A stretch of 32,000 nucleotides of DNA. Source: Methanothermobacter thermautotrophicus str. Delta H. GTDB taxonomy: Archaea; Methanobacteriota; Methanobacteria; Methanobacteriales; Methanothermobacteraceae. Below, one piece after another: positions 11,043-29,619 of this stretch (the stretch's first letter is position 1; each line of letters starts with the position of its first letter). The notes under the pieces were generated by a model. It saw only the letters and a list, made by a program, of their open reading frames with translations, was not told the DNA's origin and did not search any database. The position numbers and the translations under genes are program-made. The stretch covers positions 30,001-62,000 of the forward strand of contig NC_000916.1 of assembly GCF_000008645.1 (NCBI RefSeq), in the 5' to 3' direction.

Positions 11043-11426
11043 AGGCTGGCCCTACATAATCGAAAAAGAGGGTTTAGGATGGAAAGGTACATGGAGGTTA
11101 CAAAGCCCAATATAAGCCTTCTTAGTACTATCATCTAAACCTTCAAGGTTTACTGTGCCATTACCATCCAAGAGCGAATCTAACTTTTCAGATATTATGG
11201 CTTGGCCAAGTTCCCGAGCCCATTCTGTCTGTTGGTGGTAGTAGCAGTATGCTCCCATGAAAGCATAGATCATGTCCCTTACTATCCCTGTTGCATGGTC
11301 TATGATGAGGTATCTTCCCTGCCCGTCACTGATAAGCGTGTAATTCTCGCTTTCGAGGATGTTTAGTGACCCGCCGTTGAGGAGTGTTAGGCCTATTCCT
11401 GTTGTGTGGAGGTTTTGATCCTGGGA
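10646..11426 (-). pseudogene. Orphan C-terminal cassette E2 (5'-truncated copy of the large-protein C-terminus, internally frameshifted)
   Basis: It covers ORFs 11052..11273 (MIYAFMGAYCYYHQQTEWARELG..) and 10646..11134 (..LIGLNMAAYATIIAY..GEDHCIHYIEIPKNPDGSLRWEDAAYI). An extra T near 11100-11110 shifts the frame. There is no signal peptide and no N-terminal domains. Confidence 0.7.
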
Positions 11427-12183
11427 TTTGGGTTTATGGTTGATTTTTTTTGGATGGTGAGTTCTTTCAGGGCTTTTTTGGCTTTTTTGTATTCTGGGTC
11501 TATTTTCAGGGCTTTTTCATAGCATTTTAGTGCTTCTTTGTGTTTGCCGAGTTTTTGTAGTGTTTTTCCTTGCATGTACCATAGTGTTTTGTTTTGGGGG
11601 GTTTAGTTTGAGGGCTTTCTTGTAGCATTTCAGGGATTCCTCTGGTTTTTTGAGGTCTTCTAGGATTATGCCTTTCCATTTCCATGCATCGGCGAATTCG
11701 GGGTTTATTTCAAGGGCTTTTTGAAAGCATTCCAGCGCATCCTTATATTTTCCAAGTTCTTCGAGGACTAGTCCTTTGTTGTTCCATGTTTTGTCGTCTT
11801 CTGGATCTATTTCCAGGGCTTTTTCATAGCATTCTAGTGCCTCCTCATATCTCCCAAGTTCACTGAGGACTACTCCTTTGTTGTTCCATGCTTCTGCAAG
11901 TTTGGGGTTTATCTGTAATGCTTTTTCATAGCATTCTAGTGACTCATCATATCTCCCAAGTTCATTGAAAACTAGTCCTTTGTTGTTCCAAGCTTTATCA
12001 TCTTGTGGATTTAATTGGAGAACTTTGTCATAACATTTTAATGCTTCTTCATATATCTTAAGGTTATGTAATGTTATTCCTTTAGTTCCCCAAGCTCTAT
12101 AATTTTTTGGATTTAGCTCTATGGCTTTTTCGAAACATTTTAGTGCCTTTTTGTATTTTTTAAGGTAAATTAGAACGGAGCCT
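11131..12183. repeat. ~1.05-kb direct repeat (partner 21040-22092, offset 9909)
   Basis: Identical side-frame ORFs 11393/21302 and 11684/21593. Lines compared by eye at both ends. Confidence 0.8.
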
Positions 12184-12235
12184 TCCCCTAGCCATCCAAT
12201 CCTTTATTTTCTTAAGGGGGTTCATATTCCAGCCT
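11393..12235 (-). pseudogene. TPR gene remnant (internal deletion, in-frame stop, 3' frameshift)
   Basis: 11131-12183 matches 21040-22092 (offset 9909). At 12184 the sequence jumps straight to the TPR 5' end (..ccatccaatcctttattttcttaagggggttcat) with a tag stop. It carries the same G6 run frameshift (11596-11601) as the copy at 21505-21510. Confidence 0.65.
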
Positions 12236-12345
12236 CTCTCAACTTCTTTTTCATGTAATCGTTGGGTCCTAGTATGCAAGTTTTTATCGTCTCATGATTC
12301 TGATAGGCATCCTATGCTTGCAGCGGAACCTATTATGGGTTGATT
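12236..12345 (-). pseudogene. Decayed 3' end of a type-2 (..NYLEKKLREAGG) C-terminal module
   Basis: ~110 nt resemble 22566-22680 and 14439-14550 by eye (agcctctctcaacttctttt..cctagtatgca..) but carry many substitutions and no open frame. Confidence 0.4.
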
Positions 12346-12660: not shown

Positions 12661-13235
12661 CTAAATGTATATTGTTTCATTCTCTCTTAGCGTATCATCT
12701 GGATTTTTAGGAATCTCCTTGTAGTGTATACAATTATCCGCACCAATGTATGCTTCCAGTTTGTATCCATATATCGGGCCACGATGAAGGGATATATACT
12801 TCCAGTATTCCCTAGGTAGGTAATGATCCCTTATATTAAGAATCAAATCCCCTTCTGCAATAATACAAAAAACAAGGCTACAGTTGCCACAAAAGATCCT
12901 CCTTCTAACATAAAATAACAGCCACCAACCACACCTACTGCATCTAGAATATCCTTTGGGATGTATGTTTGATGTTCCACGATAAATTCTTTGATGCTAC
13001 CTGTAATGTTGTTGAGTTTGGAGTCTATGTAGGCTATTGTTGTTGCGTATGCTGCCATGTTAACTCTTATGAGGCCCTGACCCACCAGGCCATAACTGAT
13101 GATTTCCAAAGGTCATGGGATTGTGTGGGGCGGGTTGTATTGGGCTAATAAGGCCTCTTGAAGGCTTTTCTCGCGTTGTCCTTTAAGCCTTCAAAGGTTT
13201 GCTGTGCTGTTATCCTAAGAGTGACTTTAGCCTTT
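12661..13235 (-). pseudogene. Orphan C-terminal cassette F (decayed, several frameshifts)
   Basis: ORFs 12843..13109 and 12661..12846 join as ..AEGDLILNIRDHYLPREYWKYISLHRGPIYGYKLEAYIGADNCIHYKEIPKNPDD. Its 5' part is homologous to the copy-B region ERLKSLLDGNGTVNLEGL.. but is broken by stops. The motif residues are degenerate (ADNCIHY). Confidence 0.65.
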
Positions 13236-14438
13236 CATTTGGAGTTCTTTCAGGGCTTTTTTGGCTTTTTTGTATTCTGGGTCTATTTTCAGGGCTTTTT
13301 TGTAGGATTTTTTGGCTTTTTGGTGTTTTCCAAGTTTTTGTAGTGTTTTTCCTTGCATGTACCATAGTGTTTTGTCTTGGGGGTTTAGTTTGAGGGCTTT
13401 CTCGTAGCATTTCAGGGCTTCCTCTGGTTTTTTGAGGTCTTCCAGGATTATACCTTTCCATTCCCATGCATCGGCGAATTCTGGGTTTATTTCAAGGGCT
13501 TTTTCAAAACATTCCAGCGCCTCCTCATATTTTCCAAGTTTCCTGAGGAGTACTCCCTTGTTAGCCCATGTTTCGTCGTTTTCTAGGTTTATTTCTAAGG
13601 CTTTTTCATAGCATTCCAATGCCTCATCATATCTCTTAAGTTCTTCAAGGACTACTCCTTTGTTGTTCCATGCTTTTGCATTTTTTTGGTTTATTTCTAA
13701 GGCTTTTTCATAGCATTCTATTGCTTTTTCAGGTTTACCGATTGTGTCAAGGAGCGCTCCTTTGTTGTTCCATGTTCCATCGTCTTGTGGATCTATTTGT
13801 AGTGCCCTTCCATAGCATTCCAATGCCTCATCATATCTCTTAAGTTCTTCAAAAATTAGTGCTTTGTTGTACCATGCCTCTACGAATTCTGCGTTTATCT
13901 GTAATGCTTTTTCATAGCATTCCAATGCCTCCTCATATTTTCCGAGACTGCGTAATCCGTTACCTTTATTATACCATGCTTTTGCATTTTTTTGGTTTAT
14001 TTCTAAGGCTTTTTCATAGCATTCTATTGCTTTTTCAGGTTTACCGATTGTGTCAAGGAGCGCTCCTTTGTTGTTCCATGTTCCATCGTCTTGTGGATCT
14101 ATTTGTAGTGCCCTTTCATAGCATTCCAATGCCTCATCATATCTCTTAAGTTCTTTAAGGACTACTCCTTTGTTGTTCCATGCTTCTGCTAGTTTTGGAT
14201 TGTTTTTGAGGATTTTTTCATAACATTTTAAGGCTTTCTCTGGTCTTTTGAGTTTTAGTAGTGTCATTGCATTATAGTGCAAGATTTCCGGGTCGTTTGG
14301 ACTCGCCTTGAGGGCTTTCCTGAATTCTTTAAGAGCTTCTTTGTATTTTCCCTGTTTTAGGCTTGATCGGCCCCCGCTGAGGTGCCATCCAGCCTTTCCC
14401 CTGGCTATCCAATCCTTTATCTTCTTAAGGGGGTTCAT
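13227..14438 (-). CDS. TPR repeat protein (~11 TPR units), coupled to the upstream type-2 module
   Basis: 34-aa periodicity (..AWxNKGxxLxxLxRYDEALECYEKALxIxP..). ATGA start/stop overlap with 14435..15385. No catalytic domain. Confidence 0.8.
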   Translation of the reverse strand: MNPLKKIKDWIARGKAGWHLSGGRSSLKQGKYKEALKEFRKALKASPNDPEILHYNAMTLLKLKRPEKALKCYEKILKNNPKLAEAWNNKGVVLKELKRYDEALECYERALQIDPQDDGTWNNKGALLDTIGKPEKAIECYEKALEINQKNAKAWYNKGNGLRSLGKYEEALECYEKALQINAEFVEAWYNKALIFEELKRYDEALECYGRALQIDPQDDGTWNNKGALLDTIGKPEKAIECYEKALEINQKNAKAWNNKGVVLEELKRYDEALECYEKALEINLENDETWANKGVLLRKLGKYEEALECFEKALEINPEFADAWEWKGIILEDLKKPEEALKCYEKALKLNPQDKTLWYMQGKTLQKLGKHQKAKKSYKKALKIDPEYKKAKKALKELQMKG

Positions 14439-15385
14439 CCTCCAGCCTCTCTCAACTTCTTTTCTAGGTAGTTTTTGAATCCTAGTATGCAGGCTTCTAT
14501 TGTCTCACGATTCTCATAGGCTAATAGGCTTCCAATAGCCATCCCAGTGCCTATTACAGTACCTCCATGTTTTATGGCGCCCACGACATTCCCATCCTTT
14601 AAAGCCTCCTTGAACAGATCCCATTCATCCATCATGAGTTTACCTAAATTATTTATAGCCCTTCCTATATCGTCGGGATCGCCACCAACACCACCACTGC
14701 TAATCACCCTTAGAGTATCTACGGCTTCTCTATACTCATTTATCGCTTGACTCCATTCGTCAGACTGTCTTGATAGTATTTCAAGATAGTTTTGTATTGG
14801 TTGTGTGTCTCCTGTTAGTAGTGTGTAGGCGATGAATGTTGGCAGACCAGCGGGTGAGAGTAACATCATGGCATCTTCGATGTATGGGAGCCACTCAGGA
14901 TGTTCGATGAGGATATAAGCGACTATTGCAACAACTATTCCTATGCCAGCTGTCGCCGGCGCTGACAAGGCTCCTGCTTCGAGGATGGCGACTTCAGCTC
15001 CTCCTTCGAAGCCGACGACTTCAGCTCCTGAAACACCAGCAAATCCAATGAACTTCCACAAACCGGTCTCATTCAGTAGTTCTTTTGCGAGGTTGGCTGC
15101 CCATTCTGTCTGCAGGTGGCTGAAACAATATGCCCCCATAACATTCTTAAAGATATTGACATCCCTCACTATCCCTGTTGCAGTGTCGATGATCAGGTAG
15201 TCATTATCATAGTTTATTATGGTGTAGTTCCCAGCTTTTGTAATATTTAGTTTTTCTCCGTTCAGGAGCCTGTATGCTATGCTTGTGATCGCAGCACCTT
15301 CCATGATATCCCCTATATTGTCGAGGCTTCCATTGTATGGGAATAGGCGTTGCATTGAACTCTGAGGGGTTTGATGTCCCGACAA
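14435..15385 (-). CDS. Type-2 C-terminal module: junction block fused to a different Gly/Ala-rich hydrophobic C-terminus (likely start at ATG 15304)
   Basis: AITSIAYRLLNGEKLNITKAGNYTIINYDNDYLIIDTATGIVRDVNIFKNVMGAYCFSHLQTEWA aligns with the junction block of the 837/840-aa proteins. The rest (..ATAGIGIVVAIVAYILIEHPEWLPYIED..GGTVIGTGMAIGSLLAY..NYLEKKLREAGG) is unrelated to them. The listed start is TTG. ATG 15304 has TAGGGGAT 5 nt upstream. Confidence 0.6.
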   Translation of the reverse strand: MSGHQTPQSSMQRLFPYNGSLDNIGDIMEGAAITSIAYRLLNGEKLNITKAGNYTIINYDNDYLIIDTATGIVRDVNIFKNVMGAYCFSHLQTEWAANLAKELLNETGLWKFIGFAGVSGAEVVGFEGGAEVAILEAGALSAPATAGIGIVVAIVAYILIEHPEWLPYIEDAMMLLSPAGLPTFIAYTLLTGDTQPIQNYLEILSRQSDEWSQAINEYREAVDTLRVISSGGVGGDPDDIGRAINNLGKLMMDEWDLFKEALKDGNVVGAIKHGGTVIGTGMAIGSLLAYENRETIEACILGFKNYLEKKLREAGG

Positions 15386-15401
15386 TAATTAAATAGCCCT
15401 G

Positions 15402-15677
15402 TTATACCCCTGGAGATGCAATTAAACCCACTATAAGGAGCATTACCATCATCCATCTTATTTCATACTCTTTTTCCTTCAACTCGTAGTAGAGCCAGCA
15501 TAAAAGGAGAAGAGTGAACAAGCCTAAAGGGGCTGCTATTAGGGACAAAACATCACAATGATACTTAAGCGCAAGAATACATAGGAACATAACTATGCAG
15601 ATAAGAGGATAAGCCCTCTTATACCAAGATTCATAATCCAATAAGATCCCCTCCACTTTAGATATATACTGCTTCAT
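15402..15677 (-). CDS. Small membrane ORF, family 1 (DYES..EIRWM), putative immunity-like partner of large protein A (probable TTG start at 15641)
   Basis: 2-3 TM helices. GGAGGGG at 15648-15654 and TTG at 15641 reproduce the RBS/TTG arrangement of paralogues 20180..20425 and 23298..23534. It lies 16 nt after the protein A stop. Confidence 0.6.
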   Translation of the reverse strand: MKQYISKVEGILLDYESWYKRAYPLICIVMFLCILALKYHCDVLSLIAAPLGLFTLLLLCWLYYELKEKEYEIRWMMVMLLIVGLIASPGV

Positions 15678-18171
15678 CCCACCTCAAACTACCATCAGGA
15701 TTCTTCGGTATTTCAATATAGTGTATACAATGATCCTCACCAACATAACATCTCAACTCATAACCATCGTACCAGGAACGATGATACGATATATACTTCC
15801 AATACTCTTTTGGAAGATAATAATCTCTAAAGCTCAATATTTTATCACCAAACCACATACAAAACCCAATTGACCCTAATATCGCCCCAGCACCTCCTTT
15901 TGACACGTATCCAAAAACAGTAAGTAAAATATCTATAATGTCTTTTGGAATGTATGTTTGGTGTTCTATGATGAATTTTTTGATATCGTCTGTGATGTTT
16001 TGGAGGCTTGTGTAGGCTATTGTTGTTGCATATGCTGCCATGTTGAGTCCTATAAGTCCCTGACCCACAAGAGCATAATTGAGGATATCAACGAAAGCCA
16101 TTGGACCTTCCAGGGCAATGTACATGGAGATTACAAGGCCAATATAGGCCTTCTTGATACTATCATCTAAACCTTCAAGGTTTACTGTGCCATTACCATC
16201 CAAGAGCGAATCTAACTTTTCAGAGAATATTATGGCTTGGCCAAGTTCCCGGGCCCATTCTGTTTGTTGGTGGTAGTAGCAGTATGCTCCCATGAAAGCA
16301 TAGATCATGTCCCTTACTATCCCTGTTGCATGGTCTATGATGAGGTATCTTCCCTGCCCGTCACTGATAAGCGTGTAATTCCCGCTTTCGAGGATGTTTA
16401 GTGACCCGCCGTTGAGGAGTGTTAGGCCTATTCCTGTTGTGGGCGCGCTTGTGGGGTCTGATCCTGGGAAGAGGGCCTCCATCACATAGTATTCTATTGG
16501 ATTTATAGCTGATGTTCTCGCATAATTGAATGCTTTAATGTTTTCGGGTGTGCCTTCTGCTTTCACGGCCATGTTGTGGTTGCATTCGAGGCTTATCCAT
16601 GTCCCTGGGCTGTGGTCTCCTGCTGAGACCATCACTGGCATGGTCCTGGTCCATGTTACATTATAGCGCGTGGCTGCTTCTTCTGCGATGAGATCGTGGA
16701 GGTATATTACTTCAAGGCCTGTTAGGAATGTTCCGTGGGCTGCCTTTAATGGTCCGGGCTCGTATGTCCTGTTTAGCCACTTTTGTAATGTCTGGTTTGT
16801 TATCTTCCCTGTGGCGAGGGTGTAGGTTATGATGGCGTCGTAGTTGCTAGCCTCCCAGATGAGAGTGTCGTTTATTATGATATTGGGTCCTGTTTCTCCT
16901 GGTGGGTGTATGTATTGGCCGTTTGTGTAGAGTAGGAGGAGTGTTCTTGTTGATTTGTTCCCTGGGAATGTTATATTGGCTATTGTCACCTTTTCCTCGC
17001 CGGGATACTCCACACTGACCTGTAAAGGGTCTATGCACTTGTTATAGTTTGTGAGTATGAATATCTTTTCTGCCTGGGTTAAATTGAAGTTGTTGAGATA
17101 TTCATTCACTTGAGGTTCTGCTCCGAGTTTTGTGTAAATTTCTATGAGTCTGTTCAGGCCAGCTATGACTTGCCAGACTATTTCTCTTTGACTCTGGCTG
17201 TTAGCCTGGTAGAATGGGTTAGTGACCTCGGCTAGTTTGTATGCTATGCCATCCTCCACAAGGAATATTGTTTCATTGAATAGGCCCGAAGATATAGCCC
17301 CTATACTAATCCATTTAACCGTGTCATTGAGCGGAATTTTAAATGTTAAATTTAGGGGCTTCCCAGAGGATGTTGCCGTGGAATTAACATGGACCGTTGC
17401 AAGCATAACCTCCAATGTAATAGTCTTCGTGTCTGTTATGCCATAGCCTTGGACTGTTAGGGTTACTTTGTAGGTTCCTGGTTTGTAGGCGTGTACTGGA
17501 TTCTTCTGGGTGCTTGTGCTTTGGTCTCCGAAGTCCCATTTGTAGTATTGTATTGTCCCTGTACTTTTATCCTGGAATTGGACATTATAGCCTTGTATTG
17601 TGTAGGTGTAGTCTGCCCTTGGCCTTACTATAATTCCACCCTTACCTGTAACATATTCTACTGTTACATAGTTTGGTAGTCTTCCTGTGCTGTTGTAGAA
17701 GTTTATTATCCTTGCATTGGCATATATTAGGCTTTCTGGGCGGACTTGTCCAATGGCTGTGCTGGCATAATTCGGCGACCTCCCATAGGATTCCATGAAA
17801 GCCTTAACATTCTTTGCCACCTGCAAGTATCCTGCTTTTTGGAGTGTTCCTGTTCCTGTTCCACTTGGACTGGGCGGGGAGGCCATACTATTGAATGACA
17901 AGCCAACTCTCCTACCCTGATCGAGGTTTATGATGGTTGAGGATGAGGCGTAGAGGTAGTCGTCTGCCGACACATTCTTACCGTTAATCACAACCTGTGA
18001 TGGTATTTTTTCATGTTGTGCAGTGTAGTTTCCGATCAGCTTTGAAACGTCACAAATCTCATCATAGGATAAACTCACAGCTGAAGAACTGCCCAAAAGA
18101 CAGAAAAAGGACAGGATCGCCAGAAAAAACAACAACCTCCTCACAGCCACCACCATAATATGATAACACAT
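15658..18171 (-). CDS. Large secreted protein A: signal peptide, 2 pseudomurein-binding-like repeats, PKD domain, unassigned ~300-aa domain, junction block, variable hydrophobic C-terminus with a conserved His/Cys end module (polymorphic-toxin-like)
   Basis: 837-aa ORF. IGNYTAQHEKIPSQVVINGKNVSADDYLYASSSTI and VKAFMESYGRSPNYASTAIGQVRPESLIYANARII resemble PMBR repeats. YKWDFGDQSTSTQKNPVHAYKPGTYKVTLTV is a classic PKD signature. Residues 23-640 are identical to protein B. The start may be ATG 18156 (MVVAVRRLL). Confidence 0.7.
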   Translation of the reverse strand: MCYHIMVVAVRRLLFFLAILSFFCLLGSSSAVSLSYDEICDVSKLIGNYTAQHEKIPSQVVINGKNVSADDYLYASSSTIINLDQGRRVGLSFNSMASPPSPSGTGTGTLQKAGYLQVAKNVKAFMESYGRSPNYASTAIGQVRPESLIYANARIINFYNSTGRLPNYVTVEYVTGKGGIIVRPRADYTYTIQGYNVQFQDKSTGTIQYYKWDFGDQSTSTQKNPVHAYKPGTYKVTLTVQGYGITDTKTITLEVMLATVHVNSTATSSGKPLNLTFKIPLNDTVKWISIGAISSGLFNETIFLVEDGIAYKLAEVTNPFYQANSQSQREIVWQVIAGLNRLIEIYTKLGAEPQVNEYLNNFNLTQAEKIFILTNYNKCIDPLQVSVEYPGEEKVTIANITFPGNKSTRTLLLLYTNGQYIHPPGETGPNIIINDTLIWEASNYDAIITYTLATGKITNQTLQKWLNRTYEPGPLKAAHGTFLTGLEVIYLHDLIAEEAATRYNVTWTRTMPVMVSAGDHSPGTWISLECNHNMAVKAEGTPENIKAFNYARTSAINPIEYYVMEALFPGSDPTSAPTTGIGLTLLNGGSLNILESGNYTLISDGQGRYLIIDHATGIVRDMIYAFMGAYCYYHQQTEWARELGQAIIFSEKLDSLLDGNGTVNLEGLDDSIKKAYIGLVISMYIALEGPMAFVDILNYALVGQGLIGLNMAAYATTIAYTSLQNITDDIKKFIIEHQTYIPKDIIDILLTVFGYVSKGGAGAILGSIGFCMWFGDKILSFRDYYLPKEYWKYISYHRSWYDGYELRCYVGEDHCIHYIEIPKNPDGSLRWDEAVYI
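16252..18105. repeat. Long direct repeat, copy 1 (partner 24753-26606, offset 8501), apparently 100% identical
   Basis: The encoded proteins are identical. Three pairs of alternative-frame ORFs are also identical with the same offset (16847/25348, 17222/25723, 17491/25992). The boundary lines were compared by eye. Confidence 0.85.
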
Positions 18172-18222
18172 TATAGTATAAAAAGATTACTATCTCTTTT
18201 AGGGGCGAAAAATATAAAAGGT
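18172..18222 (-). promoter_or_regulatory. Conserved promoter region of protein A (two TATA-like elements)
   Basis: The minus strand reads cTTTTATATTTTTcg..cTTTTTATACTATA directly upstream of the ATGs. The same ~50 nt recur at 26673-26724 upstream of protein B, and similarity stops beyond them. Confidence 0.4.
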
Positions 18223-18604
18223 GGGATTTAAGACAAGAGCATGAATCCCATCATTACAAGCTTAAACAGGAAAAAATAGGCACTTACCATCCCCCCCAGA
18301 TGGGCAAAGAGAAACCTTATATTGCTGTCATAAAATGATTCTTGTTTACATAATGATTCTTGAGGAGTTTATTTTGTCATGCTTGAAAATAAAATATGTG
18401 GAGGCCGAGAAGAAAACTTTGATAGTCGCTTTTTTGGGAACCTGATATCCCCTTTTGGGTTTGTGTAGTGTGGTGTTTGATCCATTTTTAGGTTATTCTG
18501 GGAGGGGGGGATGAGATTGGAGGCTGCTATTTGGAGGCTAGAAATGTCCTGAGCCTCTTTATTTTGGTATTGGCTTGTTGGTTTGTTGTTGGGTTTAACG
18601 CTCC

Positions 18605-18883
18605 TCAATGATATAGCCGAGAAAGGAGAAGTACACCTACTAGGAGCATTATAACAAAAAGTGTTTCGATCACACCTTTTTCCTCGCCTCTGAACACCTT
18701 CTTCGACAGAAAATAGATTAGCAAAAACATATTTCCCAGTAAAAGACACGTTAACAATATAATAGGTAGTTCAGGCCTAGTAGGCAGTAAAGCCAACTTA
18801 CTACCCGTAAACAGTAAAACCAACAAAATTGTAAAACACGATAACGACCCCAAAAACTGAAAAAGCTTAGATGTATGCTGCAT
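18605..18883 (-). CDS. Small membrane ORF, family 2 (putative immunity-like partner of cassette E1)
   Basis: 92 aa. It shares RPELPIILLTCLLLGNMFLLIYFLSKKVFRGEEKGV with 10384..10662. Its ATG is embedded in the cassette's last codons. Confidence 0.6.
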   Translation of the reverse strand: MQHTSKLFQFLGSLSCFTILLVLLFTGSKLALLPTRPELPIILLTCLLLGNMFLLIYFLSKKVFRGEEKGVIETLFVIMLLVGVLLLSRLYH

Positions 18884-19274
18884 CCTCCCACCTCAAACTA
18901 CCATCAGGATTCTTCGGTATTTCAATATAGTGTATACAATGATCCTCACCAACATAACTTCTCAACTCATAACCATAAATCCAGGTACGATGAATCGAAA
19001 TATACTTCCAATATTCTTGGGGAAGATAATGAGTCCGTATCCTTAAAATCAAATCACCTTCAGCCACTATCACACTTATAAAACCCAAAGGACCCATAAC
19101 AGCAGTGACACCGGCAACAGTTGCAATATCTAATATACCATGGAAAACATCCTCTAGAATGCATGTTTGGTGTTCTATGATGAATTTTTTGATATCGTCT
19201 GTGATGTTTAGGAGGCCTGTGTAGGCTATTATTGTTGCATATGCTGCCATGTTGAGTCCTATAAATCCCTCCAC
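18867..19274 (-). CDS. Orphan C-terminal cassette E1 (5'-truncated; no ATG, listed start is GTG inside ..LVEGFIG..)
   Basis: ..EGFIGLNMAAYATIIAYTGLLNITDDIKKFIIEHQTCILEDVFHGILDIATVAGVTAVMGPLGFISVIVAEGDLILRIRTHYLPQEYWKY..GEDHCIHYIEIPKNPDGSLRWEDAAYI. Homology to the full-length genes begins only at ~19295. Confidence 0.7.
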   Translation of the reverse strand: MEGFIGLNMAAYATIIAYTGLLNITDDIKKFIIEHQTCILEDVFHGILDIATVAGVTAVMGPLGFISVIVAEGDLILRIRTHYLPQEYWKYISIHRTWIYGYELRSYVGEDHCIHYIEIPKNPDGSLRWEDAAYI

Positions 19275-19404
19275 AAGAGCATAATTGAGGATATCCTGGA
19301 ATGTAAATCCACATAGACTTCAACATTATCATGAGTTGTGATATTTTTTATAGGTTTTTTCTAAGATTTTCCAGTTTTTTTGGGCGTGGGGGGCTGCTTT
19401 TCTT

Positions 19405-19647
19405 TTATGCAAGGCCAAAGAAGCCTATAATTACAAGCAAGCCTCCAAGTGCTCTGACAGTTTCATTTTCAGTTTTTCCCAACTCATCCTTGCCTAATAG
19501 GTAAATTAAGAGAAACATGTTCACTATGTAAATGGAATAGACAATTAATTTGCTGATAATATAGGGGAAACGGAGACTAACCACAACCAATGCAGCAGTA
19601 AAATAAGAAAGGAAATAACTAAAATAAAAAATGTACTTTACCATCAT
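19405..19647 (-). CDS. Small membrane ORF, distant family 2 (putative immunity-like partner of cassette D)
   Basis: 80 aa, 3 hydrophobic helices. It shares NMFLLIYLLGK with family 2. RBS AGGAGGA lies in the 13-nt gap after the cassette D stop. Confidence 0.55.
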   Translation of the reverse strand: MMVKYIFYFSYFLSYFTAALVVVSLRFPYIISKLIVYSIYIVNMFLLIYLLGKDELGKTENETVRALGGLLVIIGFFGLA

Positions 19648-19660
19648 ATCATCCTCCTAA

Positions 19661-20164
19661 TCAGATATACACTGCTTCATCCCATCTTAAAGTACCATCT
19701 GGGTTCTTTGGGATTTCAATGTAGTGTATGCAATGGTCTTCGCCAACATAAATTTTAAGTTCATAACCATGCCGCCAAGTTCTATGGTAAGAAACATATT
19801 TCCAATATTCAGTTGGAAGATAATTCGTTCTTACATTCACAATTAAATCACCTTCTGCTAATAGTAGAGAAGCAATCGAAAAAATACCACTTGCCAAGGT
19901 GACACCTTCACTACTAAGCTCTTTTAAACTCCATATAAAAAGAATCCCATCTATAATGTCCCCTCCAATGCATGTTTGGTGTTCTATGATGAATTTTTTG
20001 ATATCGTCTGTGATGTTTAGGAGGCCTGTGTAGGCTATTATTGTTGCATATGCTGCCATGTTGAGTCCTATGAGGCTGGCCCTACATAATCGAAAAAGAG
20101 GGTTTAGGATGGAAAGGTACATGGAGGTTACAAAGCCCAATATAAGCCTTCTTAGTACTATCAT
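19661..20164 (-). CDS. Orphan C-terminal cassette D (5'-truncated; the first ~10 listed residues are an out-of-frame artefact)
   Basis: The core GGDIIDGILFIWSLKELSSEGVTLASGIFSIASLLLAEGDLIVNVRTNYLPTEYWKY is unique. The end module is conserved. DNA homology (..LDGNSTVNLEGLDDSTKKAYIG) starts at ~20200, overlapping the preceding ORF's 3' end. It has the same extra-T frameshift as E2. Confidence 0.7.
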   Translation of the reverse strand: MIVLRRLILGFVTSMYLSILNPLFRLCRASLIGLNMAAYATIIAYTGLLNITDDIKKFIIEHQTCIGGDIIDGILFIWSLKELSSEGVTLASGIFSIASLLLAEGDLIVNVRTNYLPTEYWKYVSYHRTWRHGYELKIYVGEDHCIHYIEIPKNPDGTLRWDEAVYI

Positions 20165-20179
20165 CTAAACCTTCAAGGT

Positions 20180-20425
20180 TTACAGTGCTGTTGCCATCCA
20201 GGAAAAGGACGAGCCTACTACAAAGGTTATGGCCATTAACCATCGTATTTCATCCTCTCTTTCCTTCAATTTGAATTGGAGCCAGAATAGAAGAGAAAAA
20301 ATGAACAAGCCTAAAAGGTCTGCTATTGGAATCAAACCATTAAAATGTTTAATTCCAATGGAAAATAAAATAATATCGAGACAAAGAAGGGAATAAAGTA
20401 TATCGAGCAAAGATTCATAATCCAA
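20180..20425 (-). CDS. Small membrane ORF, family 1 (TTG start, RBS AGGAGGTG at 20433-20440)
   Basis: 81 aa. DYESLLD..EDEIRWLM is paralogous to 15402..15677 and 23298..23534. A decayed cassette-end remnant (~20446-20485) lies directly upstream. Confidence 0.6.
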   Translation of the reverse strand: MDYESLLDILYSLLCLDIILFSIGIKHFNGLIPIADLLGLFIFSLLFWLQFKLKEREDEIRWLMAITFVVGSSFSWMATAL

Positions 20426-20464
20426 GAAAAGACACCTCCTATATCATCCACTTAGACTACCCCA

Positions 20465-20554
20465 TTAGGGTTCGTTTGAGAATTTTAGCCCCATATAGTT
20501 GCCGCGGATCGTAAAATACGCCAAAAACTGAAAAAGCTTAGATGTATACTGCAT
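20465..20554 (-). pseudogene. Truncated family-2 membrane ORF remnant after cassette C
   Basis: MQYTSKLFQFL.. starts inside the last codons of cassette C exactly as in E1/E2, then diverges and stops after 29 codons. Confidence 0.45.
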
Positions 20555-21182
20555 CCTCCCACCTCAAACTACCATCAGGATTCTTCGGTATTTCAATATA
20601 GTGTATACAATGATCCTCACCAACATAACTTCTCAACTCATAACCATAAATCCAGGTACGATGAATCGAAATATACTTCCAATATTCTTGGGGAAGATAA
20701 TGATCTCTAAATGTAAGTATGCCATCACCTATCCGCATACACCATCCAATTGGTTGAAATATTTCACCACCATACCTTACTAACACATATGCCAAAACCT
20801 GGATCAAACAGTGAGCAGTATCTTCTGAGATGTATGTTTGGTGTTCTATGATGAATTTTTTGATATCGTCTGTGATGTTTAGGAGGCTTGTGTAGGCTAT
20901 TATTGTTGCATATGCTGCCATGTTGAGTCCTATAAATCCCTCCACAAGAGCATAATTGAGGATATCAACGAAAGCCATTGGACCTTCCAGGGCAATGTAC
21001 ATGGAGATTACAAGGCCAATATAAGCCTTCTTGATACTATCATCTAAACCTTCAAGGTTTACTGTGCCATTACCATCCAAGAGCGAATCTAACTTTTCAG
21101 ATATTATGGCTTGGCCAAGTTCCCGAGCCCATTCTGTCTGTTGGTGGTAGTAGCAGTATGCTCCCATGAAAGCATAGATCAT
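20538..21182 (-). CDS. Orphan C-terminal cassette C (homology extends 5' to ~21335; no N-terminal domains)
   Basis: The in-frame upstream extension reads TTGIGLTLLNGGSLNILESENYTLISDGQGRYLIIDHATGIVRD-MIYAFMG... The unique core is SEDTAHCLIQVLAYVLVRYGGEIFQPIGWCMRIGDGILTFRDHYLP. The end module is identical to that of E1/E2. Confidence 0.7.
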   Translation of the reverse strand: MIYAFMGAYCYYHQQTEWARELGQAIISEKLDSLLDGNGTVNLEGLDDSIKKAYIGLVISMYIALEGPMAFVDILNYALVEGFIGLNMAAYATIIAYTSLLNITDDIKKFIIEHQTYISEDTAHCLIQVLAYVLVRYGGEIFQPIGWCMRIGDGILTFRDHYLPQEYWKYISIHRTWIYGYELRSYVGEDHCIHYIEIPKNPDGSLRWEDAVYI

Positions 21183-21425
21183 GTCCCTTACTATCCCTGT
21201 TGCATGGTCTATGATGAGGTATCTTCCCTGCCCGTCACTGATAAGCGTGTAATTCTCGCTTTCGAGGATGTTTAGTGACCCGCCGTTGAGGAGTGTTAGG
21301 CCTATTCCTGTTGTGTGGAGGTTTTGATCCTGGGATTTGGGTTTATGGTTGATTTTTTTTGGATGGTGAGTTCTTTCAGGGCTTTTTTGGCTTTTTTGTA
21401 TTCTGGGTCTATTTTCAGGGCTTTT

Positions 21426-22565
21426 TCATAGCATTTTAGTGCTTCTTTGTGTTTGCCGAGTTTTTGTAGTGTTTTTCCTTGCATGTACCATAGTGTTTTG
21501 TTTTGGGGGGTTTAGTTTGAGGGCTTTCTTGTAGCATTTCAGGGATTCCTCTGGTTTTTTGAGGTCTTCTAGGATTATGCCTTTCCATTTCCATGCATCG
21601 GCGAATTCGGGGTTTATTTCAAGGGCTTTTTGAAAGCATTCCAGCGCATCCTTATATTTTCCAAGTTCTTCGAGGACTAGTCCTTTGTTGTTCCATGTTT
21701 TGTCGTCTTCTGGATCTATTTCCAGGGCTTTTTCATAGCATTCTAGTGCCTCCTCATATCTCCCAAGTTCACTGAGGACTACTCCTTTGTTGTTCCATGC
21801 TTCTGCAAGTTTGGGGTTTATCTGTAATGCTTTTTCATAGCATTCTAGTGACTCATCATATCTCCCAAGTTCATTGAAAACTAGTCCTTTGTTGTTCCAA
21901 GCTTTATCATCTTGTGGATTTAATTGGAGAACTTTGTCATAACATTTTAATGCTTCTTCATATATCTTAAGGTTATGTAATGTTATTCCTTTAGTTCCCC
22001 AAGCTCTATAATTTTTTGGATTTAGCTCTATGGCTTTTTCGAAACATTTTAGTGCCTTTTTGTATTTTTTAAGGTAAATTAGAACGGAGCCTTTATTGTA
22101 CCATGCATCTGCAAGTTTGGGGTTTATCTGTAATGCTTTTTCATAGCATTCTAGTGCCTCATCATATCTCCCAAGTTCTTTGAGGACTAGTGCTTTATTG
22201 TTCCATGCTCCTGCATACTTTGGATTTATTTTTAGTGCTTTTTCATAGCATTCTAGTGCCTCATCATATCTCCCAAGTTCTTTGAGGACTAGTCCTTTGT
22301 TGTTCCATGCTTCTGCAAGTTTTGGATTGTTTTTGAGGATTTTTTCATAGCATTCTAAGGCTTTCTCTGGTCTTTTGAGTTTTAGTAGTGTTATTGCATT
22401 GTAGTGGAGGATTTCTGGGTTGTTTGGTCTTGCTTTGAGGGCTTTCCTGAATTCTTTGAGGGCTTCTTTGTATTTTCCCTGTTTTAGGCTTGATCGGCCC
22501 CCAGCAAGGTGCCATCCAGCCTTTCCCTCGGCTATCCAATCCTTTATTTTCTTAAGGGGGTTCAT
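21426..22565 (-). CDS. TPR repeat protein, frameshifted near its 3' end (last TPR units continue in ORF 21302..21484)
   Basis: 379 aa of TPR units. At the G6 run 21505-21510 the frame slips (..KLNPPKQNTMVH.. instead of ..KLNPQ.KTLWYMQGKTLQKLGKH..). ATGA overlap with 22562..23164. Confidence 0.75.
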   Translation of the reverse strand: MNPLKKIKDWIAEGKAGWHLAGGRSSLKQGKYKEALKEFRKALKARPNNPEILHYNAITLLKLKRPEKALECYEKILKNNPKLAEAWNNKGLVLKELGRYDEALECYEKALKINPKYAGAWNNKALVLKELGRYDEALECYEKALQINPKLADAWYNKGSVLIYLKKYKKALKCFEKAIELNPKNYRAWGTKGITLHNLKIYEEALKCYDKVLQLNPQDDKAWNNKGLVFNELGRYDESLECYEKALQINPKLAEAWNNKGVVLSELGRYEEALECYEKALEIDPEDDKTWNNKGLVLEELGKYKDALECFQKALEINPEFADAWKWKGIILEDLKKPEESLKCYKKALKLNPPKQNTMVHARKNTTKTRQTQRSTKML

Positions 22566-23164
22566 CCTCCAGCCTCTCTCAACTTCTTTTCTAGGTAGTT
22601 TTTGAATCCTAGTATGCAGGCTTCTATTGCTTCACGATTCTCATAGGCCAATAGGCTTCCAATAGCCATCCCAGTGCCTATTATAGTGCCTCCATGTTTT
22701 ATGGCGCCCACAACATCCCCATCCTTTAAAGCCTCCTTGAACAGATCCCATTCATCCATCATGAGTTTACCTAAATTATTTATAGCCCTTCCTATATCAT
22801 CAGGGTCTGGGGATGATGGGACATTCACTTGAGGAAGCTCCCCCCAATTTGTAATTCTTTTCTTCCATTCCTTGTCAGGTATTATTTTTGCTAATTCTTG
22901 TATTGGTTGTGTGTCTCCTGTTAGTAGTGTGTAGGTGATGAATGTTGGCAAACCACCAGGTGAAAGTAGCATGCTCATCATCATAGCATCTTCGATGTAT
23001 GGTAGCCATTCAGGATGCTCCATGATAATAATTAGAGCCAGGGTAATAACCAAGCCTAAACCTAGTGTTTCTGGGGCTGAAAGCACACCCAATTCAAGTG
23101 CAGCTGCTTCGGCTGTTGAAACACCAGCAACACCAATAAATTTCCACCAACCACTCCAATTCAA
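22562..23164 (-). CDS. Type-2 C-terminal module, 5'-truncated and frameshifted copy
   Basis: Homologous, with several substitutions and small indels, to the C-terminal ~200 aa of 14435..15385 (..IEHPEWLPYIEDAMM..NYLEKKLREAGG). Upstream, MGAYY(fs)HQQTELAKKLGNEILNWSGWWKF shows a 1-nt deletion, and homology ends at ~23225. Confidence 0.6.
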   Translation of the reverse strand: MNWSGWWKFIGVAGVSTAEAAALELGVLSAPETLGLGLVITLALIIIMEHPEWLPYIEDAMMMSMLLSPGGLPTFITYTLLTGDTQPIQELAKIIPDKEWKKRITNWGELPQVNVPSSPDPDDIGRAINNLGKLMMDEWDLFKEALKDGDVVGAIKHGGTIIGTGMAIGSLLAYENREAIEACILGFKNYLEKKLREAGG

Positions 23165-23297
23165 AATTTCATTCCCAAGTTTTTTGGCTAGTTCTGTTTG
23201 TTGGTGTAGTATGCTCCCATAATATTCCTGTTTTATGTCTATTAAATGAAAAAAACCTTAACATCCCCCTTCATCTTGGCAACATGATAACTCCTCT

Positions 23298-23534
23298 TTA
23301 TGTTCCGAATATAATTAATGCAAGGATTATGGCAATCATCCATCTTATTTCTTCTTTTTTTCCCTTCAACTCATCCACGAAGAAGTGCAACCAGAATAAA
23401 AGGAAATAAATAAACACGGTTAAAAGGGCCGCTATTGGAACCAAACCATTAAAATGCCTAATCCCAACAAAATATAAAATAATATCAACACAAATAAGAA
23501 AATAAACCTTCCCAAACAAAGATTCATAATCCAA
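23298..23534 (-). CDS. Small membrane ORF, family 1 (TTG start)
   Basis: 78 aa. DYESLFG..KEEIRWMIAI. It lies 15 nt after the stub stop at 23550-23552. Confidence 0.55.
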   Translation of the reverse strand: MDYESLFGKVYFLICVDIILYFVGIRHFNGLVPIAALLTVFIYFLLFWLHFFVDELKGKKEEIRWMIAIILALIIFGT

Positions 23535-23549
23535 AAAAGACCCTTCTCA

Positions 23550-23640
23550 CTAACAATATACTGCTTCATCCCACCGTAGAGTACCATCAGGGTTCTTCGG
23601 CATTCCATGTTGTATGCAATGGGATCCTTCATACTGAAGT
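23550..23640 (-). pseudogene. Stub of a cassette 3' end (last ~28 codons only)
   Basis: It reads YEGSHCIQHGMPKNPDGTLRWDEAVYC*, compared with YVGEDHCIHYIEIPKNPDGTLRWDEAVYI*. It abuts the stop of 23629..24045. Confidence 0.6.
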
Positions 23641-24045
23641 ATTGGATTCTTTGATTAAAAGGGTTGCGACTATCAGAGCAAAAATACCTATTAATATTCT
23701 GTCTAAGATTATCATTGTTAAAGCAAAGATGTATGCTAGTATTATGGAGGATTTGGCTAACCATTCCATCTTAAGTTTCCCTATCTTATTTAAGAAGATG
23801 AAAGAGATTATGAGGAATGTGAAAGCCCCCACATCCCCCCCAAGGAAAAAAGATCCAATGGCAAGCAACACACCACCTATAACCCCATATAAGAGAAAAT
23901 CCAACCTCTTTTCCCGTTCTCCTAAACCTCCTAATATCAGTAATATACAACCTATAAATACTAACATAAAAAGTATACAGCCTATGATTATTCTTAAACC
24001 TAACATAGAACCACCCATCCTTTTTCTCCAATCACCCCACCACAA
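23629..24045 (-). CDS. Multi-TM small protein downstream of protein B (candidate immunity-like ORF; likely start at ATG 24018)
   Basis: 4 hydrophobic helices with Gly-rich loops and no paralogue in the window. It is ~130 nt from the protein B stop, so less tightly coupled than the other pairs. Confidence 0.45.
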   Translation of the reverse strand: MWWGDWRKRMGGSMLGLRIIIGCILFMLVFIGCILLILGGLGEREKRLDFLLYGVIGGVLLAIGSFFLGGDVGAFTFLIISFIFLNKIGKLKMEWLAKSSIILAYIFALTMIILDRILIGIFALIVATLLIKESNTSV

Positions 24046-27203: not shown

Positions 27204-27599
27204 TTATTTCCTTCTTTGTTGATCAAATGTAAGTAAAATTAACGCCGCTATAGCCACTACAGTCATAATAGTTCTTAGTGATAATGGCTGTTGGGTTAAT
27301 ACTACTATATAAAAAAATAAAGCCAAAAATATTGTGTAAAACAAGAGTTTTAATCTTCTTCCAGGACTATTATAAATACTTTGAAGTCTGATGTATCCAT
27401 AGAAAGTTAGTATCATTAACATGAACATTAACAATCTTAACTCTAAATATTGGAAAAAATTAAATTCTATGTATAAAAAAATGCCAAAAAATACCACGCA
27501 CAAAAGTAATGTTATTCTTTTTTCATTTTTTTCACTTATCTCAAACATACTTCTTCCACTCCCTAAAATTAAAATAATAATTAGGTATATGTCCACCAT
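27204..27599 (-). CDS. Multi-TM ORF, family 3 (putative immunity-like partner of cassette K2; likely start at ATG 27548)
   Basis: 4 hydrophobic helices. LTFYGYIRL and ALFFYIVVLTQQPLSLRT parallel LSLYGYRT and ALFLYIILVLQPALNTL of 28390..28758. Confidence 0.5.
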   Translation of the reverse strand: MVDIYLIIILILGSGRSMFEISEKNEKRITLLLCVVFFGIFLYIEFNFFQYLELRLLMFMLMILTFYGYIRLQSIYNSPGRRLKLLFYTIFLALFFYIVVLTQQPLSLRTIMTVVAIAALILLTFDQQRRK

Positions 27600-27808
27600 C
27601 CCTCATTAACATGCGCTGTTCCTATAGTACCTAAGTAAGCTGTCCCTAATAAACCAAAAAACTTACCCACTGGATGATCTGTGTAACCTAGCGTCACACA
27701 AACCCAGGCACACCCATAGTAGACTCTCCACCAGTTAAACTCCTTACCATGCCATTTACCCTTCTTCTTCAACCGGTACTTCCAGTTTTTACCAATGATC
27801 TTTTGCAT
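27581..27808 (-). CDS. Leader+cargo cassette K2 (5'-truncated; frame opens only at ..KVLSREEMQKIIGK)
   Basis: MQKIIGK-NWKYRLKKKGKWHGKEFNWWRVYYGCAWVCVTLGYTDHPVGKFFGLLGTAYLGTIGTAHVNEGWWTYT. ~95 nt appear identical by eye to K1 (27729-27816 vs 28928-29015). Confidence 0.55.
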   Translation of the reverse strand: MQKIIGKNWKYRLKKKGKWHGKEFNWWRVYYGCAWVCVTLGYTDHPVGKFFGLLGTAYLGTIGTAHVNEGWWTYT

Positions 27809-27998
27809 TTCCTCTCTGCTTAGGACTTTTTATCTGCTATGTTCGCGATTTGATCTCTATCCGTGCTTATATGGTCTTTTGCCTTTGACGTTCTTGCATC
27901 TCCCCTAATTTTACTGGTCGTTGATTCTATTAGCTTTTGGATCCCCCTCTTTTGTGCTTGTCAATGTAAAGGTCCGATAGGAAATGCTGGTTGGAGGG

Positions 27999-28211
27999 TC
28001 AAGATGCTTTTGGTTTAATCTTCGCGAATAATCCCAGTGTCATCAATATTAGTGTTATGAAGAAGGATCCGAGGCAAAGGCATATTAGCCAGAAGGGGCT
28101 GAGGCCACCTAATAATGTCCCCGCGGGGCCTTTGACCACAAACTCCACCAGATTCATAATACATAATGTTAGGGCCACCACTATCATATTAACATTTTCT
28201 TCCCCTTTCAT
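27999..28211 (-). CDS. Small 2-TM ORF (uncertain)
   Basis: Hydrophobic 62-70-aa ORF on the island's coding strand. It is preferred over the overlapping plus-strand ORF 27991..28365, which has no recognisable features. Confidence 0.3.
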   Translation of the reverse strand: MKGEENVNMIVVALTLCIMNLVEFVVKGPAGTLLGGLSPFWLICLCLGSFFITLILMTLGLFAKIKPKAS

Positions 28212-28389
28212 GCTGAAATGCGCTATAAAATATCCGGTCAGGACAAAATGTCATCCTAATTCACCTTTGAATAGCAAAGTATTCTCCTCTCATAATGTGG
28301 ACTATAAAATATGCCAACCATATCTCCACTCAAACTGTGGGAATAATGTACAGTTATCCCAGTAGATTCCCAATCCTCAATGGGGGGTC

Positions 28390-28758
28390 CTAAGTCTCTT
28401 TGTTTTTAGTGGCGGTTCTTAGGAAAGTTTTCAGTTGAGGCGCGTTGATTAGGAAGAGTGTTGTCAGTAATCCGATGGCTACATACCAGTTTAAGGTGTT
28501 TAATGCTGGTTGAAGTACCAGTATGATGTAGAGGAAGAGTGCTGTGAGGACCGTCTCAACAAAAACTTTAAGCTGCCATTTATTGTGTCGATTTGAAGTT
28601 CTATAACCATAGAGGGAGAGCATGGCAAGCATCATCAGAAAAACCATTAACTCCGAGGCTCCATGGACATCAAACACATAAAGGAATGAAATTACCATAA
28701 AAACCGTGAATATGCCTAAAAAATATCTCAAATCTCTATTCCTCCTTTCATCAGACAT
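28390..28758 (-). CDS. Multi-TM ORF, family 3 (putative immunity-like partner of cassette K1)
   Basis: 122 aa, 4 hydrophobic helices. RBS AGGAGG lies in the 36-nt gap after the K1 stop. Confidence 0.55.
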   Translation of the reverse strand: MSDERRNRDLRYFLGIFTVFMVISFLYVFDVHGASELMVFLMMLAMLSLYGYRTSNRHNKWQLKVFVETVLTALFLYIILVLQPALNTLNWYVAIGLLTTLFLINAPQLKTFLRTATKNKET

Positions 28759-28794
28759 TATAAAAACCTCCTGAATAAGAAAAATGGTGGTACT

Positions 28795-29067
28795 TTAATA
28801 CCACCACCCACAATGTGTACGATAATAACGCCCTTCTGAGGGTTCAAACATGAGATAAAGGGCGCCAGCTTTGCCCCATGGGCCACCGTACACTGTCCCC
28901 GCAACAGCAGCCCAGTAATAAACTTTCCACCAGTTAAACTCCTTACCATGCCATTTACCCTTCTTCTTCAACCGGTACTTCCAGTTTTTACCAATGATCT
29001 TTTGCATTTCCTCTGTGCTGAGGGGTTCTATTCGCTGTGTTCTCCGCGGTTTTGTTGTAACATCCAT
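28795..29067 (-). CDS. Leader+cargo cassette K1 (has its own ATG): double-glycine-like leader followed by a cationic Trp/Gly-rich core
   Basis: MDVTTKPRRTQRIEPLSTEEMQKIIGK | NWKYRLKKKGKWHGKEFNWWKVYYWAAVAGTVYGGPWGKAGALYLMFEPSEGRYYRTHCGWWY. The junction DNA cctcagcacagaggaaatgca is shared with the C39 gene. Confidence 0.55.
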   Translation of the reverse strand: MDVTTKPRRTQRIEPLSTEEMQKIIGKNWKYRLKKKGKWHGKEFNWWKVYYWAAVAGTVYGGPWGKAGALYLMFEPSEGRYYRTHCGWWY

Positions 29068-29127
29068 GTTTATTCATCTTAGATGTTTAAGATCTGGGCT
29101 TCCATTTTGTTTTTTGTTCGCTGTATT

Positions 29128-29583: not shown

Positions 29584-29619
29584 AATTTTTCTCCTCTTTT
29601 AAAATAATTGGTTGGATGG

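Follow-up and report, generated by a model that had tools for sequence, protein, structure and literature searches.

A displaced cassette of a Gly/Ala-rich module and a TPR protein in a polymorphic surface-protein system of Methanothermobacter thermautotrophicus Delta H

Introduction

The C-terminal part of the CdiA proteins (CdiA-CT) of contact-dependent inhibition (CDI) systems consists of an entry domain and a toxin domain, and the pore-forming colicins combine a receptor-binding N-terminal part with a helical, hydrophobic C-terminal killing domain, the gene of a membrane immunity protein lying directly downstream. The features that define orphan cdiA-CT/cdiI and rhs-CT/rhsI modules were given by Poole et al. 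2011 (PMC3150448). Alpha-repeat immunity proteins, namely Imm-HEAT and Imm-Ank, are known from polymorphic toxin systems (Zhang et al. 2012, PMC3482391), and PldB has immunity proteins made of Sel1-like repeats, the Tli5b proteins PA5086-5088 (work cited in PMC13133936). In Thermococcales, the hypervariable Ig-domain module VARTIG has an organisation like that of polymorphic toxin systems and an unproven function (PMC8416519). Here we analysed a 32,000-nt stretch of Methanothermobacter thermautotrophicus Delta H (hereafter the window), focusing on two adjacent genes at 13227-15385 that encode a Gly/Ala-rich module and a tetratricopeptide repeat (TPR) protein. The pair turned out to be an 'orphan', a displaced cassette that belongs to a system of polymorphic surface proteins in Methanothermobacter.

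Results

An interchangeable C-terminus behind a conserved junction

All the genes discussed lie on the minus strand, and their coordinates in the window are listed in Table 1. The C-terminus of the surface proteins is interchangeable after a conserved junction (consensus ..GAYC[YF][YS]H[QL]QTEWA), being either of the YWKY/DHCIHY type or of the Gly/Ala-rich helical type. The orphan open reading frame (ORF) retains this junction as a homology handle: its residues 11-96 were homologous to the full-length genes in tblastn searches, where 24714-24983 was matched at 45% identity (E=5e-17) and 15970-16482, in a longer alignment, at 35%, which agrees with the first-pass annotation of this DNA, where the ORF had been described as opening with the junction block. 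The same annotation had proposed that an unrelated module was grafted at the same junction. This held in the profile comparison, since hhalign of the Gly/Ala-rich family against the YWKY/DHCIHY family aligned 16 residues only (HxQTEWAxxLxxxxL) and nothing beyond them; a common ancestry of the two module types was therefore rejected. It also held in another strain, where the same module is the true C-terminus of a surface protein. In particular, the JGI contig L092 carries an intact 856-codon gene, 96% identical in its N-terminal part to the window genes, that passes the junction without a change of frame and ends in this module, here 75% identical to the copy in the window. Via an ATGA overlap, this gene is followed by a TPR gene whose product is 100% identical to that of the window. 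As the module of L092 forms the C-terminus of an intact gene, the pair in the window is a displaced copy of a real C-terminus found elsewhere. A further orphan of L092 (6386-6934) has the same junction (GAYCYYHQQTEWAKELG...) and a third, different C-terminal module (..FLGAVTILGGLESGGWFSRLSSLGGGLDLLVNGLREYEQWYKSEGYKYDDALRLKA), and the contig ends before any partner gene is reached.

The two large ORFs of the window, genes #1 and #2, matched exactly the proteins AAB84593.1 and AAB84579.1 (gene #2), which both bear the name 'surface protease related protein'; for the 91-aa ORF the match was AAB84578.1. The full-length proteins begin with a hydrophobic, signal-peptide-like segment, followed by three pseudomurein-binding repeats (PMBR, E=1e-26) and a PKD domain (E=7.5e-14), and in gene #2 the PKD domain is followed by a central region, the junction and a YWKY/DHCIHY module. 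The central region of approximately 380 aa had no family match, remote-homology searches were also empty, and an AlphaFold2 model of the central region with the junction reached a pLDDT of 39. Genes #1 and #2 were 100% identical at the nucleotide level over approximately 1.8 kb (16317-18117 against 24810-26620) and dropped to 57-81% identity from the junction on, a pattern that points to a recent event, either duplication or gene conversion, confined to the delivery part.

The orphan ORF lacks a convincing start signal of its own: the TTG is simply the first possible start codon, assigned mechanically, and in-frame ATGs occur at codons 11 and 28. Its junction is of the CFSHLQTEWA variant, common to the full-length gene of the L012 type, and was approximately 47-53% identical to the junctions of Delta H's own full-length genes against 65% for the L012 type (L012 1875-2123). 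To judge from these identities, another allele family is the probable source of the orphan, whose recombination with the resident full-length genes may be poor. The orphan ORF was 99% identical to its counterparts in M. marburgensis, KEPCO-1 and THM-2 (all represented by the match P0001); compared with M. marburgensis, 7 out of 948 nt differed (dS 0.02, dN/dS 0.22).

The downstream gene follows the type of the module

We mapped the cassettes in the window and in 11 further loci (designated by L numbers), many of which are close relatives of each other. All the 3' ends of Gly/Ala-rich modules (20 out of 20) were followed by a TPR gene, while the YWKY/DHCIHY ends in the cassette arrays were followed by a small multi-pass membrane ORF, and no mixed case of module type and partner type was found in this set. 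The TPR genes thus fill the slot that is held by small membrane ORFs after YWKY modules, and the tight coupling of module and TPR gene that had been claimed at first reading was recovered as adjacency in every related locus examined. The first-pass annotation had also named the occurrence of either gene alone as a check; within the fetched loci, the only module without a TPR gene (L001, 10241-10489) had lost its own 3' half at the edge of the island, and no TPR gene without a module was found. Counting approximately four independent module lineages against approximately seven membrane-partner types, a perfect split would occur by chance in about 1 out of 330 cases.

The overlap between the stop codon of the module and the start codon of the 403-aa TPR protein, already noted in the first-pass annotation, is present in the sequence and was kept in window copies 2 and 3 as well as in L002-L005 and L091-L094. 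Moreover, the module-TPR adjacency held across module subtypes that were only 26-36% identical and were accompanied by different TPR types. Comparing copies 1 and 2 of the window (W1 and W2), the N-half of the module was 67% and the C-half 79% identical, and the TPR type was shared; comparing W2 with the L006 subtype, the N-half was 77% and the C-half 36% identical, and the TPR types differed. The two halves thus evolve separately and the TPR type tracks the identity of the C-half, so the partner follows the C-half. Within the subfamily of long TPR proteins, the combinations W1 with TPR-A, W1 with TPR-B, W2 with TPR-B and L092-type with TPR-A were all seen; here the module and TPR variants are shuffled and not strictly co-inherited, while co-variation holds between subtypes. 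The dN/dS values were 0.2-0.36 in the module and TPR comparisons alike, which indicates that both are maintained as proteins.

The same module in other strains

In M. marburgensis, KEPCO-1 and THM-2 we found the full-length gene, the 91-aa ORF and the orphan in this order, followed by a TPR gene of 406-440 aa that starts at the stop of the module. The island of M. marburgensis (L002 7047-15198, CP001710) is a mosaic of the two Delta H arrays (window 13242-23025), in blocks of 94.5% and 97.5% nucleotide identity, and it has different flanking genes, Nre on one side and SelR on the other. The mosaic and the changed flanks suggest either that the species exchanged the island recently or that it is mobile.

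Two other subtypes of the module were found at the end of full-length genes, each with a different TPR protein. Locus L006, which shares the flanking genes of the window, has a full-length gene (frameshifted near its 5' end, in a contig of approximately 1x coverage) that ends in a module subtype only 35% identical to that of the window. One nucleotide past this module starts the gene of a 207-aa protein with an N-terminal transmembrane (TM) helix, a basic N-terminus and approximately five TPRs. The L006-type pair is followed by a 5'-truncated module of the window type with an intact 403-aa TPR protein, and L094 has a module-TPR pair of the same subtype as L006. In L012, a Methanothermobacter metagenome-assembled genome, the full-length gene has a central region only 38-39% identical to that of the window, the CFSHLQTEWA junction variant and a third module subtype, and a 266-aa TPR protein follows. 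Finally, L011 has a module remnant (52% identical) followed by a TPR remnant, and the TPR gene is intact beside truncated modules in L006, L093 and L094.

Two further pairs in Delta H

The first-pass annotation had located a second, damaged pair at 21302-23225 and a third, heavily decayed one, and both were recovered in our comparisons. The first pair (13242-14910) matched the second (21368-23025) with 81.6% nucleotide identity over 1685 nt. The junction of module copy 2 reads only ..NIMGAYY, in another frame than HQQTELAKK, hence this copy is 5'-truncated and frameshifted. TPR copy 2, with its 3' frameshift, was 93-94% identical to the intact TPR proteins of M. marburgensis and L093. The third pair is reduced to the last module codons and a TPR gene damaged down to position 11393 (Table 1).

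Table 1. Features of the cassette island and its upstream neighbourhood, in window coordinates (TM, transmembrane)
Order in island	Feature	Coordinates	Strand	Remarks
1	Full-length gene #1	24150-26672	-	840 aa
2	Small membrane ORFs		-	
3	Module copy 2	22562..23225	-	5'-truncated to the last junction residues, frameshifted between GAYY and HQQTE
3	TPR copy 2 (variant B)	21302..22565	-	Frameshift near 3' end (~21484): 379-codon ORF and 60-codon ORF
4	Three orphan YWKY/DHCIHY cassettes		-	One 3-TM-like ORF apiece
5	Full-length gene #2	15658-18171	-	837 aa
5	91-aa 3-TM-like ORF	15402..15677	-	Overlaps the end of gene #2; partner of its YWKY module; orphan ORF starts 16 nt past its stop
6	Orphan 3' cassette ORF	14435..15385	-	316 codons, no signal peptide of its own
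6	Junction-homology segment	15098..15355	-	Residues 11-96, MQRLFP...LLNGEKLNITKAGNYT...GAYCFSHLQTEWA; what remains of the conserved part of the full-length genes, namely its 3' end
6	Gly/Ala-rich helical module	14438..15097	-	Residues 97-316, 220 aa, partly hydrophobic
6	27-nt tandem duplication	14970..15030	-	2.3 copies; encodes an extra GAEVVGFEG, missing from copy 2
6	Strongest TM-like segment of the module	14897..14977	-	Residues 137-163, AGALSAPATAGIGIVVAIVAYILIEHP; Kyte-Doolittle, 19-residue window, maximum 2.29
6	ATGA overlap, module stop/TPR start	14435..14438	-	...GCTGGAGGATGAACC; purine-rich GAGAGGCTGGAGG just upstream
6	TPR partner	13227..14438	-	403 aa, 11 TPR units, no signal peptide or TM segment
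7	Further YWKY orphan with membrane ORF		-	
8	Third, decayed pair	11393..12308	-	Last 27 module codons (12228-12308), then frameshifted, internally deleted TPR
9	Last YWKY orphan with membrane ORF		-	
	ORF of upstream cluster	30246-30524	-	Signal peptide plus NYTCGPAALATLL
	ORF of upstream cluster	29620-30189	-	Pfam Peptidase_C39, E=6.6e-17

The module and its relatives

The N-half of the module is hydrophobic and Gly/Ala-rich, has few basic residues and ends in ...TLLTGD, and the C-half is helical and of mixed charge, with a glycine-zipper-like VVGAIKHGGTVIGTGMAIGS and a basic tail at the end. According to hydropathy, the module has one strong TM-like helix and weaker hydrophobic stretches. 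Searches of the module returned 0 Pfam families at E<=0.01 (noise alone at E<=10) and 0 NCBIfam families, while the best matches of a profile search against the PDB were designed TPR or helical proteins (E~0.006).

A word-indexed search of 5.8 billion protein clusters recovered 8 relatives of the module, all of them from Methanothermobacter/Methanobacteriales and 127-316 aa long. An exhaustive HMMER search of 1.84 billion representatives gave 16 matches at E<=1e-3. Only the seven best-scoring ones look like genuine relatives (one genuine match being a 720-aa protein); the weaker ones inspected were repetitive or TPR proteins. A metagenome scan with a narrower alignment of the module added four more loci. 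No relative was found in a scan of the IMG/VR viral collection, and an association of the module with viruses was rejected on this basis.

The TPR protein

The TPR partner matched the Pfam model TPR_1 (E=1.8e-120) in 11 stretches over approximately residues 16-397. Its gene carries an internal duplication, detected by TRF at 13657-14227 with a period of 306 nt (3 units), 90% matches and a 102-nt periodicity. The orthologues vary in length by whole repeats (403, 406 and 440 aa; also L005 10948-12270), which indicates that the array evolves by gain and loss of repeats. The TPR proteins of L091 and L092 were 100% identical to that of the window.

We found no catalytic domain of the GT41 type in the TPR protein: the TPR units fill its 403 aa, and the best 25 Pfam and best 25 NCBIfam matches were all helical-repeat or TPR models. 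An identity as O-GlcNAc transferase (GT41) was thus rejected, as there is neither room for a glycosyltransferase domain nor a match to one among those listed, and an O-GlcNAc-transferase label would rest on TPR similarity alone.

The exact TPR sequence had no named entry in the protein collections searched. A full-length search returned generic TPR proteins at 30-53% identity, the Methanothermobacter orthologues not being among the matches listed, while a search with the N-terminal 68 residues returned a single 57-aa fragment. A contig scan with the first 151 residues gave generic TPR proteins among the matches listed and at least one relevant locus, L012. The TPR genes beside the module in L002-L006 were without precomputed Pfam matches, their exact sequences were absent from the protein collection, and they appear poorly indexed, so surveys from the TPR side are limited.

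Neighbourhood of the cassette

The cassette island spans from 26672 down to 10384 of the window. Gene #1 is followed by a 138-aa ORF (23629-24045) with approximately four TM-like segments, and next by a short YWKY remnant with a 78-aa TM ORF (23298-23534); the immediate partner of gene #1 is thus unlike the 3-TM-like ORFs of the other YWKY cassettes.

Upstream of the island lies a bacteriocin-like cluster (27204-30524). Its two first ORFs (30246-30524 and 29620-30189) look like one split secreted C39 peptidase, the C-terminus of which has ILSTEEMQNIRGK, a hydrophobic stretch and then the YWKY...DHCIHY motif shared with the full-length surface proteins. In a pair of small ORFs (28795-29067 and 27581-27808), Trp/Gly-rich peptides are preceded by an LSTEEMQKIIGK motif that resembles a double-glycine leader, and multi-TM ORFs adjoin these two ORFs (29128-29583, 28390-28758 and 27204-27599).

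Discussion

In its architecture, the pair described here agrees point for point with the features that define the orphan modules of the CDI and Rhs systems. As in those, a conserved delivery part is followed by a variable C-terminus, with an abrupt loss of identity at a short conserved motif, and the cognate gene lies directly downstream and changes with the type of the C-terminus. Spare cassettes, truncated at the 5' end, also occur in arrays; they preserve the motif together with part of the homology before it and lack a start or export signal of their own. A module that is an orphan in one strain forms the main C-terminus in a second one (L092, with divergent subtypes in L006 and L012), and partner genes are retained beside truncated fragments of the effector. 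Unlike in CDI and Rhs, the host is an archaeon, and the delivery part is made of a signal peptide, PMBR and PKD instead of TpsA/FHA or YD repeats, with no type V or type VI secretion system. The junction motif is GAYC..H.QTEWA, not VENN or PxxxxDPxGL. Neither the modules, whose toxicity is putative, nor their partners are related to catalogued toxin or immunity families, and the partner is a 403-aa TPR solenoid and not a small globular protein. The two halves of the module recall the two-part layout of CdiA-CT.

Helical-repeat immunity proteins, which the first-pass annotation had named as a bacterial precedent for the TPR partner, do exist in bacteria as Imm-HEAT, Imm-Ank and Tli5b. They share with our locus a helical-repeat solenoid encoded beside an effector and stockpiled in several paralogous copies, and they were proposed or shown to sequester the effector through a large interface. 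Unlike the TPR partner, those repeat proteins counter bacterial enzymes (nuclease, phospholipase) and are periplasmic or cytosolic according to the target, whereas here the repeats are canonical 34-residue TPRs and the effector has no recognised catalytic domain.

The logic of the locus is also colicin-like, with a wall-binding N-terminal part, and the YWKY cassettes with their 3-TM-like partners fit this model best. There is, however, no sequence similarity to colicins, and the partner of the Gly/Ala-rich module is a soluble TPR protein and not a membrane protein. VARTIG likewise is part of a surface protein of archaea whose hypervariable C-terminus recombines and whose downstream genes vary, but it is built of Ig domains and not of PMBR, PKD and a helical module, and neither orphan arrays that share a conserved junction nor a TPR partner have been reported for it.

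The agreement with the orphan features of CDI and Rhs, together with the helical-repeat precedents, favours a reading as toxin and immunity protein. We therefore lean, with modest confidence, towards the module of this orphan cassette being an effector and the TPR protein its cognate immunity protein, so that the pair would represent stored immunity and a spare effector; we infer the immunity role from the position of the gene. In such a system the full-length protein would carry the module, via PMBR, to the pseudomurein wall of neighbouring cells, i.e. related methanogens. The hydrophobic N-half would then insert into or cross the membrane and the variable C-half would do the damage, unless the TPR solenoid bound the C-half and neutralised the module. 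The orphan pair would keep an immunity gene and a spare effector in store, and recombination at the junction would load the module onto a full-length gene. A step further, we tentatively consider, as a possibility that falls somewhat short of even chances, that this is a home-grown antagonism system targeted to pseudomurein and built on the polymorphic-toxin plan, in which one class of effectors would be bipartite, with a shared hydrophobic half for membrane entry and a variable half that kills, and would be neutralised by a TPR solenoid.

Several points weigh against this assignment of toxin and immunity roles. No described toxin domain matched the module in Pfam, NCBIfam or the PDB, and the AlphaFold2 model of the orphan (14-row alignment, pLDDT 43) was as unusable as that of the central region. 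The family is tiny and restricted to a handful of Methanothermobacter lineages, which leaves a small number of independent observations. Near-identical modules (Delta H and M. marburgensis) occur with TPR proteins only 73% identical, one TPR protein is shared by modules only 75% identical, and TPR copies 2 and 3 are broken in Delta H itself. There is also a puzzle of topology: the full-length protein looks Sec-exported, and neither a signal peptide nor a TM segment is present in two of the three TPR types. Being cytosolic, these two types could meet the module on the cytoplasmic side only; the L006-type TPR protein is the only one with an N-terminal TM helix. Finally, the strongly hydrophobic helix of the module could be a stop-transfer anchor of the producer and not an effector.

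This last point leads to the simplest alternative, which we nevertheless consider unlikely: the helix would fix the wall-bound protein in the membrane of the producer, and the TPR protein would bind the cytoplasmic C-half as scaffold, chaperone or signalling adaptor, with neither toxin nor antidote involved. The single strong TM-like segment, followed by approximately 150 mostly soluble residues, is in line with such an anchor, the cytosolic nature of two of the three TPR types suits binding on the cytoplasmic side, and the free shuffling of module and TPR variants would be expected if binding were not highly specific. TPR proteins are, in addition, classic chaperones of hydrophobic secreted proteins. 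The class II TPR chaperones of type III secretion (SycD/LcrH, SscB) are encoded beside secreted proteins with membrane-inserting hydrophobic helices and bind them before export, and the NCBIfam models of SycD/LcrH and SscB match our TPR protein, though generically. Those chaperones are proteins of approximately 150 aa with 3 TPRs, encoded in an injectisome operon, whereas the TPR proteins of our loci have 403, 266 or 207 aa and 5-11 TPRs, and the window contains no type III secretion genes. An identity as class II chaperone was thus rejected, the LcrH_SycD match being generic repeat similarity. An anchor with a cytoplasmic adaptor would leave unexplained the strain-level polymorphism of the C-terminus with a sharp junction within one species, the arrays of spare cassettes with a partner gene in each, and the persistence of TPR genes beside truncated modules. 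Moreover, under the positive-inside rule, the N-terminal TM helix and basic N-terminus of the L006-type protein predict an outward-facing TPR domain.

A system of kin recognition or adhesion appears rather improbable. The variable C-terminus and its partner would then form a strain-specific pair, comparable to IdsD/IdsE of Proteus or to VARTIG, that serves aggregation or the discrimination of self from non-self and does not kill. Polymorphism, cassette arrays and cognate partner genes are equally expected of identity determinants, no catalytic or toxin signature was found in the module, and non-toxin readings of organisation like that of polymorphic toxin systems have been proposed for archaeal hypervariable surface modules (PMC8416519). 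However, the missing fine-scale co-variation of module and TPR protein fits a specificity pair poorly, genes of antagonism type (the C39 peptidase, leader-like peptides and multi-TM ORFs) are enriched nearby, and partner genes kept beside truncated modules are typical of stockpiled immunity. It is very improbable that there is no functional link at all, with a TPR gene that is merely carried along by a duplicated and decaying segment and an orphan ORF that is a pseudogene fragment. In favour of this, two of the three pairs of Delta H are broken and the orphan lacks a convincing start. Against it, the adjacency extends to divergent subtypes with different TPR types, the pair of L092 sits at the end of an intact gene, the dN/dS values indicate maintenance of both proteins, and the overlap of 4 nt has been conserved, the decayed copy included.

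Significance

Antagonism between archaea is largely unexplored. Many archaeal conflict systems are said to have been predicted by Makarova and colleagues in 2019. Zhang et al. 2012 (PMC3482391) found few classical polymorphic toxin systems in archaea, with a bacterial origin for most of them, and archaeal predictions were still called experimentally uncharacterised in 2021 (PMC8416519). Text searches of the literature on pseudomurein and polymorphic toxins gave no relevant account of the family described here, which may nevertheless have been predicted earlier. Under the toxin and immunity reading, the system would work like a polymorphic toxin system, yet no part of its junction or modules belongs to a catalogued family. 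Its wall-binding part is specific to archaea, and a TPR solenoid is unusual as a partner. The locus thus offers a complete, apparently archaeal-born example, with pseudomurein-specific wall binding and with a junction motif, two module families and two partner classes that are all unannotated. One scaffold carries two putative effector types with quite different partners, in one case a small membrane protein, in the other a TPR solenoid, which makes for a clean natural comparison. The analysis also corrects the misleading annotation of the full-length genes as 'surface protease related protein'.

Methanothermobacter thermautotrophicus Delta H is the type strain, is genetically tractable and is a methanogen used in biomethanation. 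In such a tractable host, toxicity, immunity and competition between strains are directly testable. If the antagonism reading is true, the cassette would represent a new toxin fold and a new class of archaeal immunity proteins, and it would open a direct route to tests of warfare of methanogen versus methanogen.

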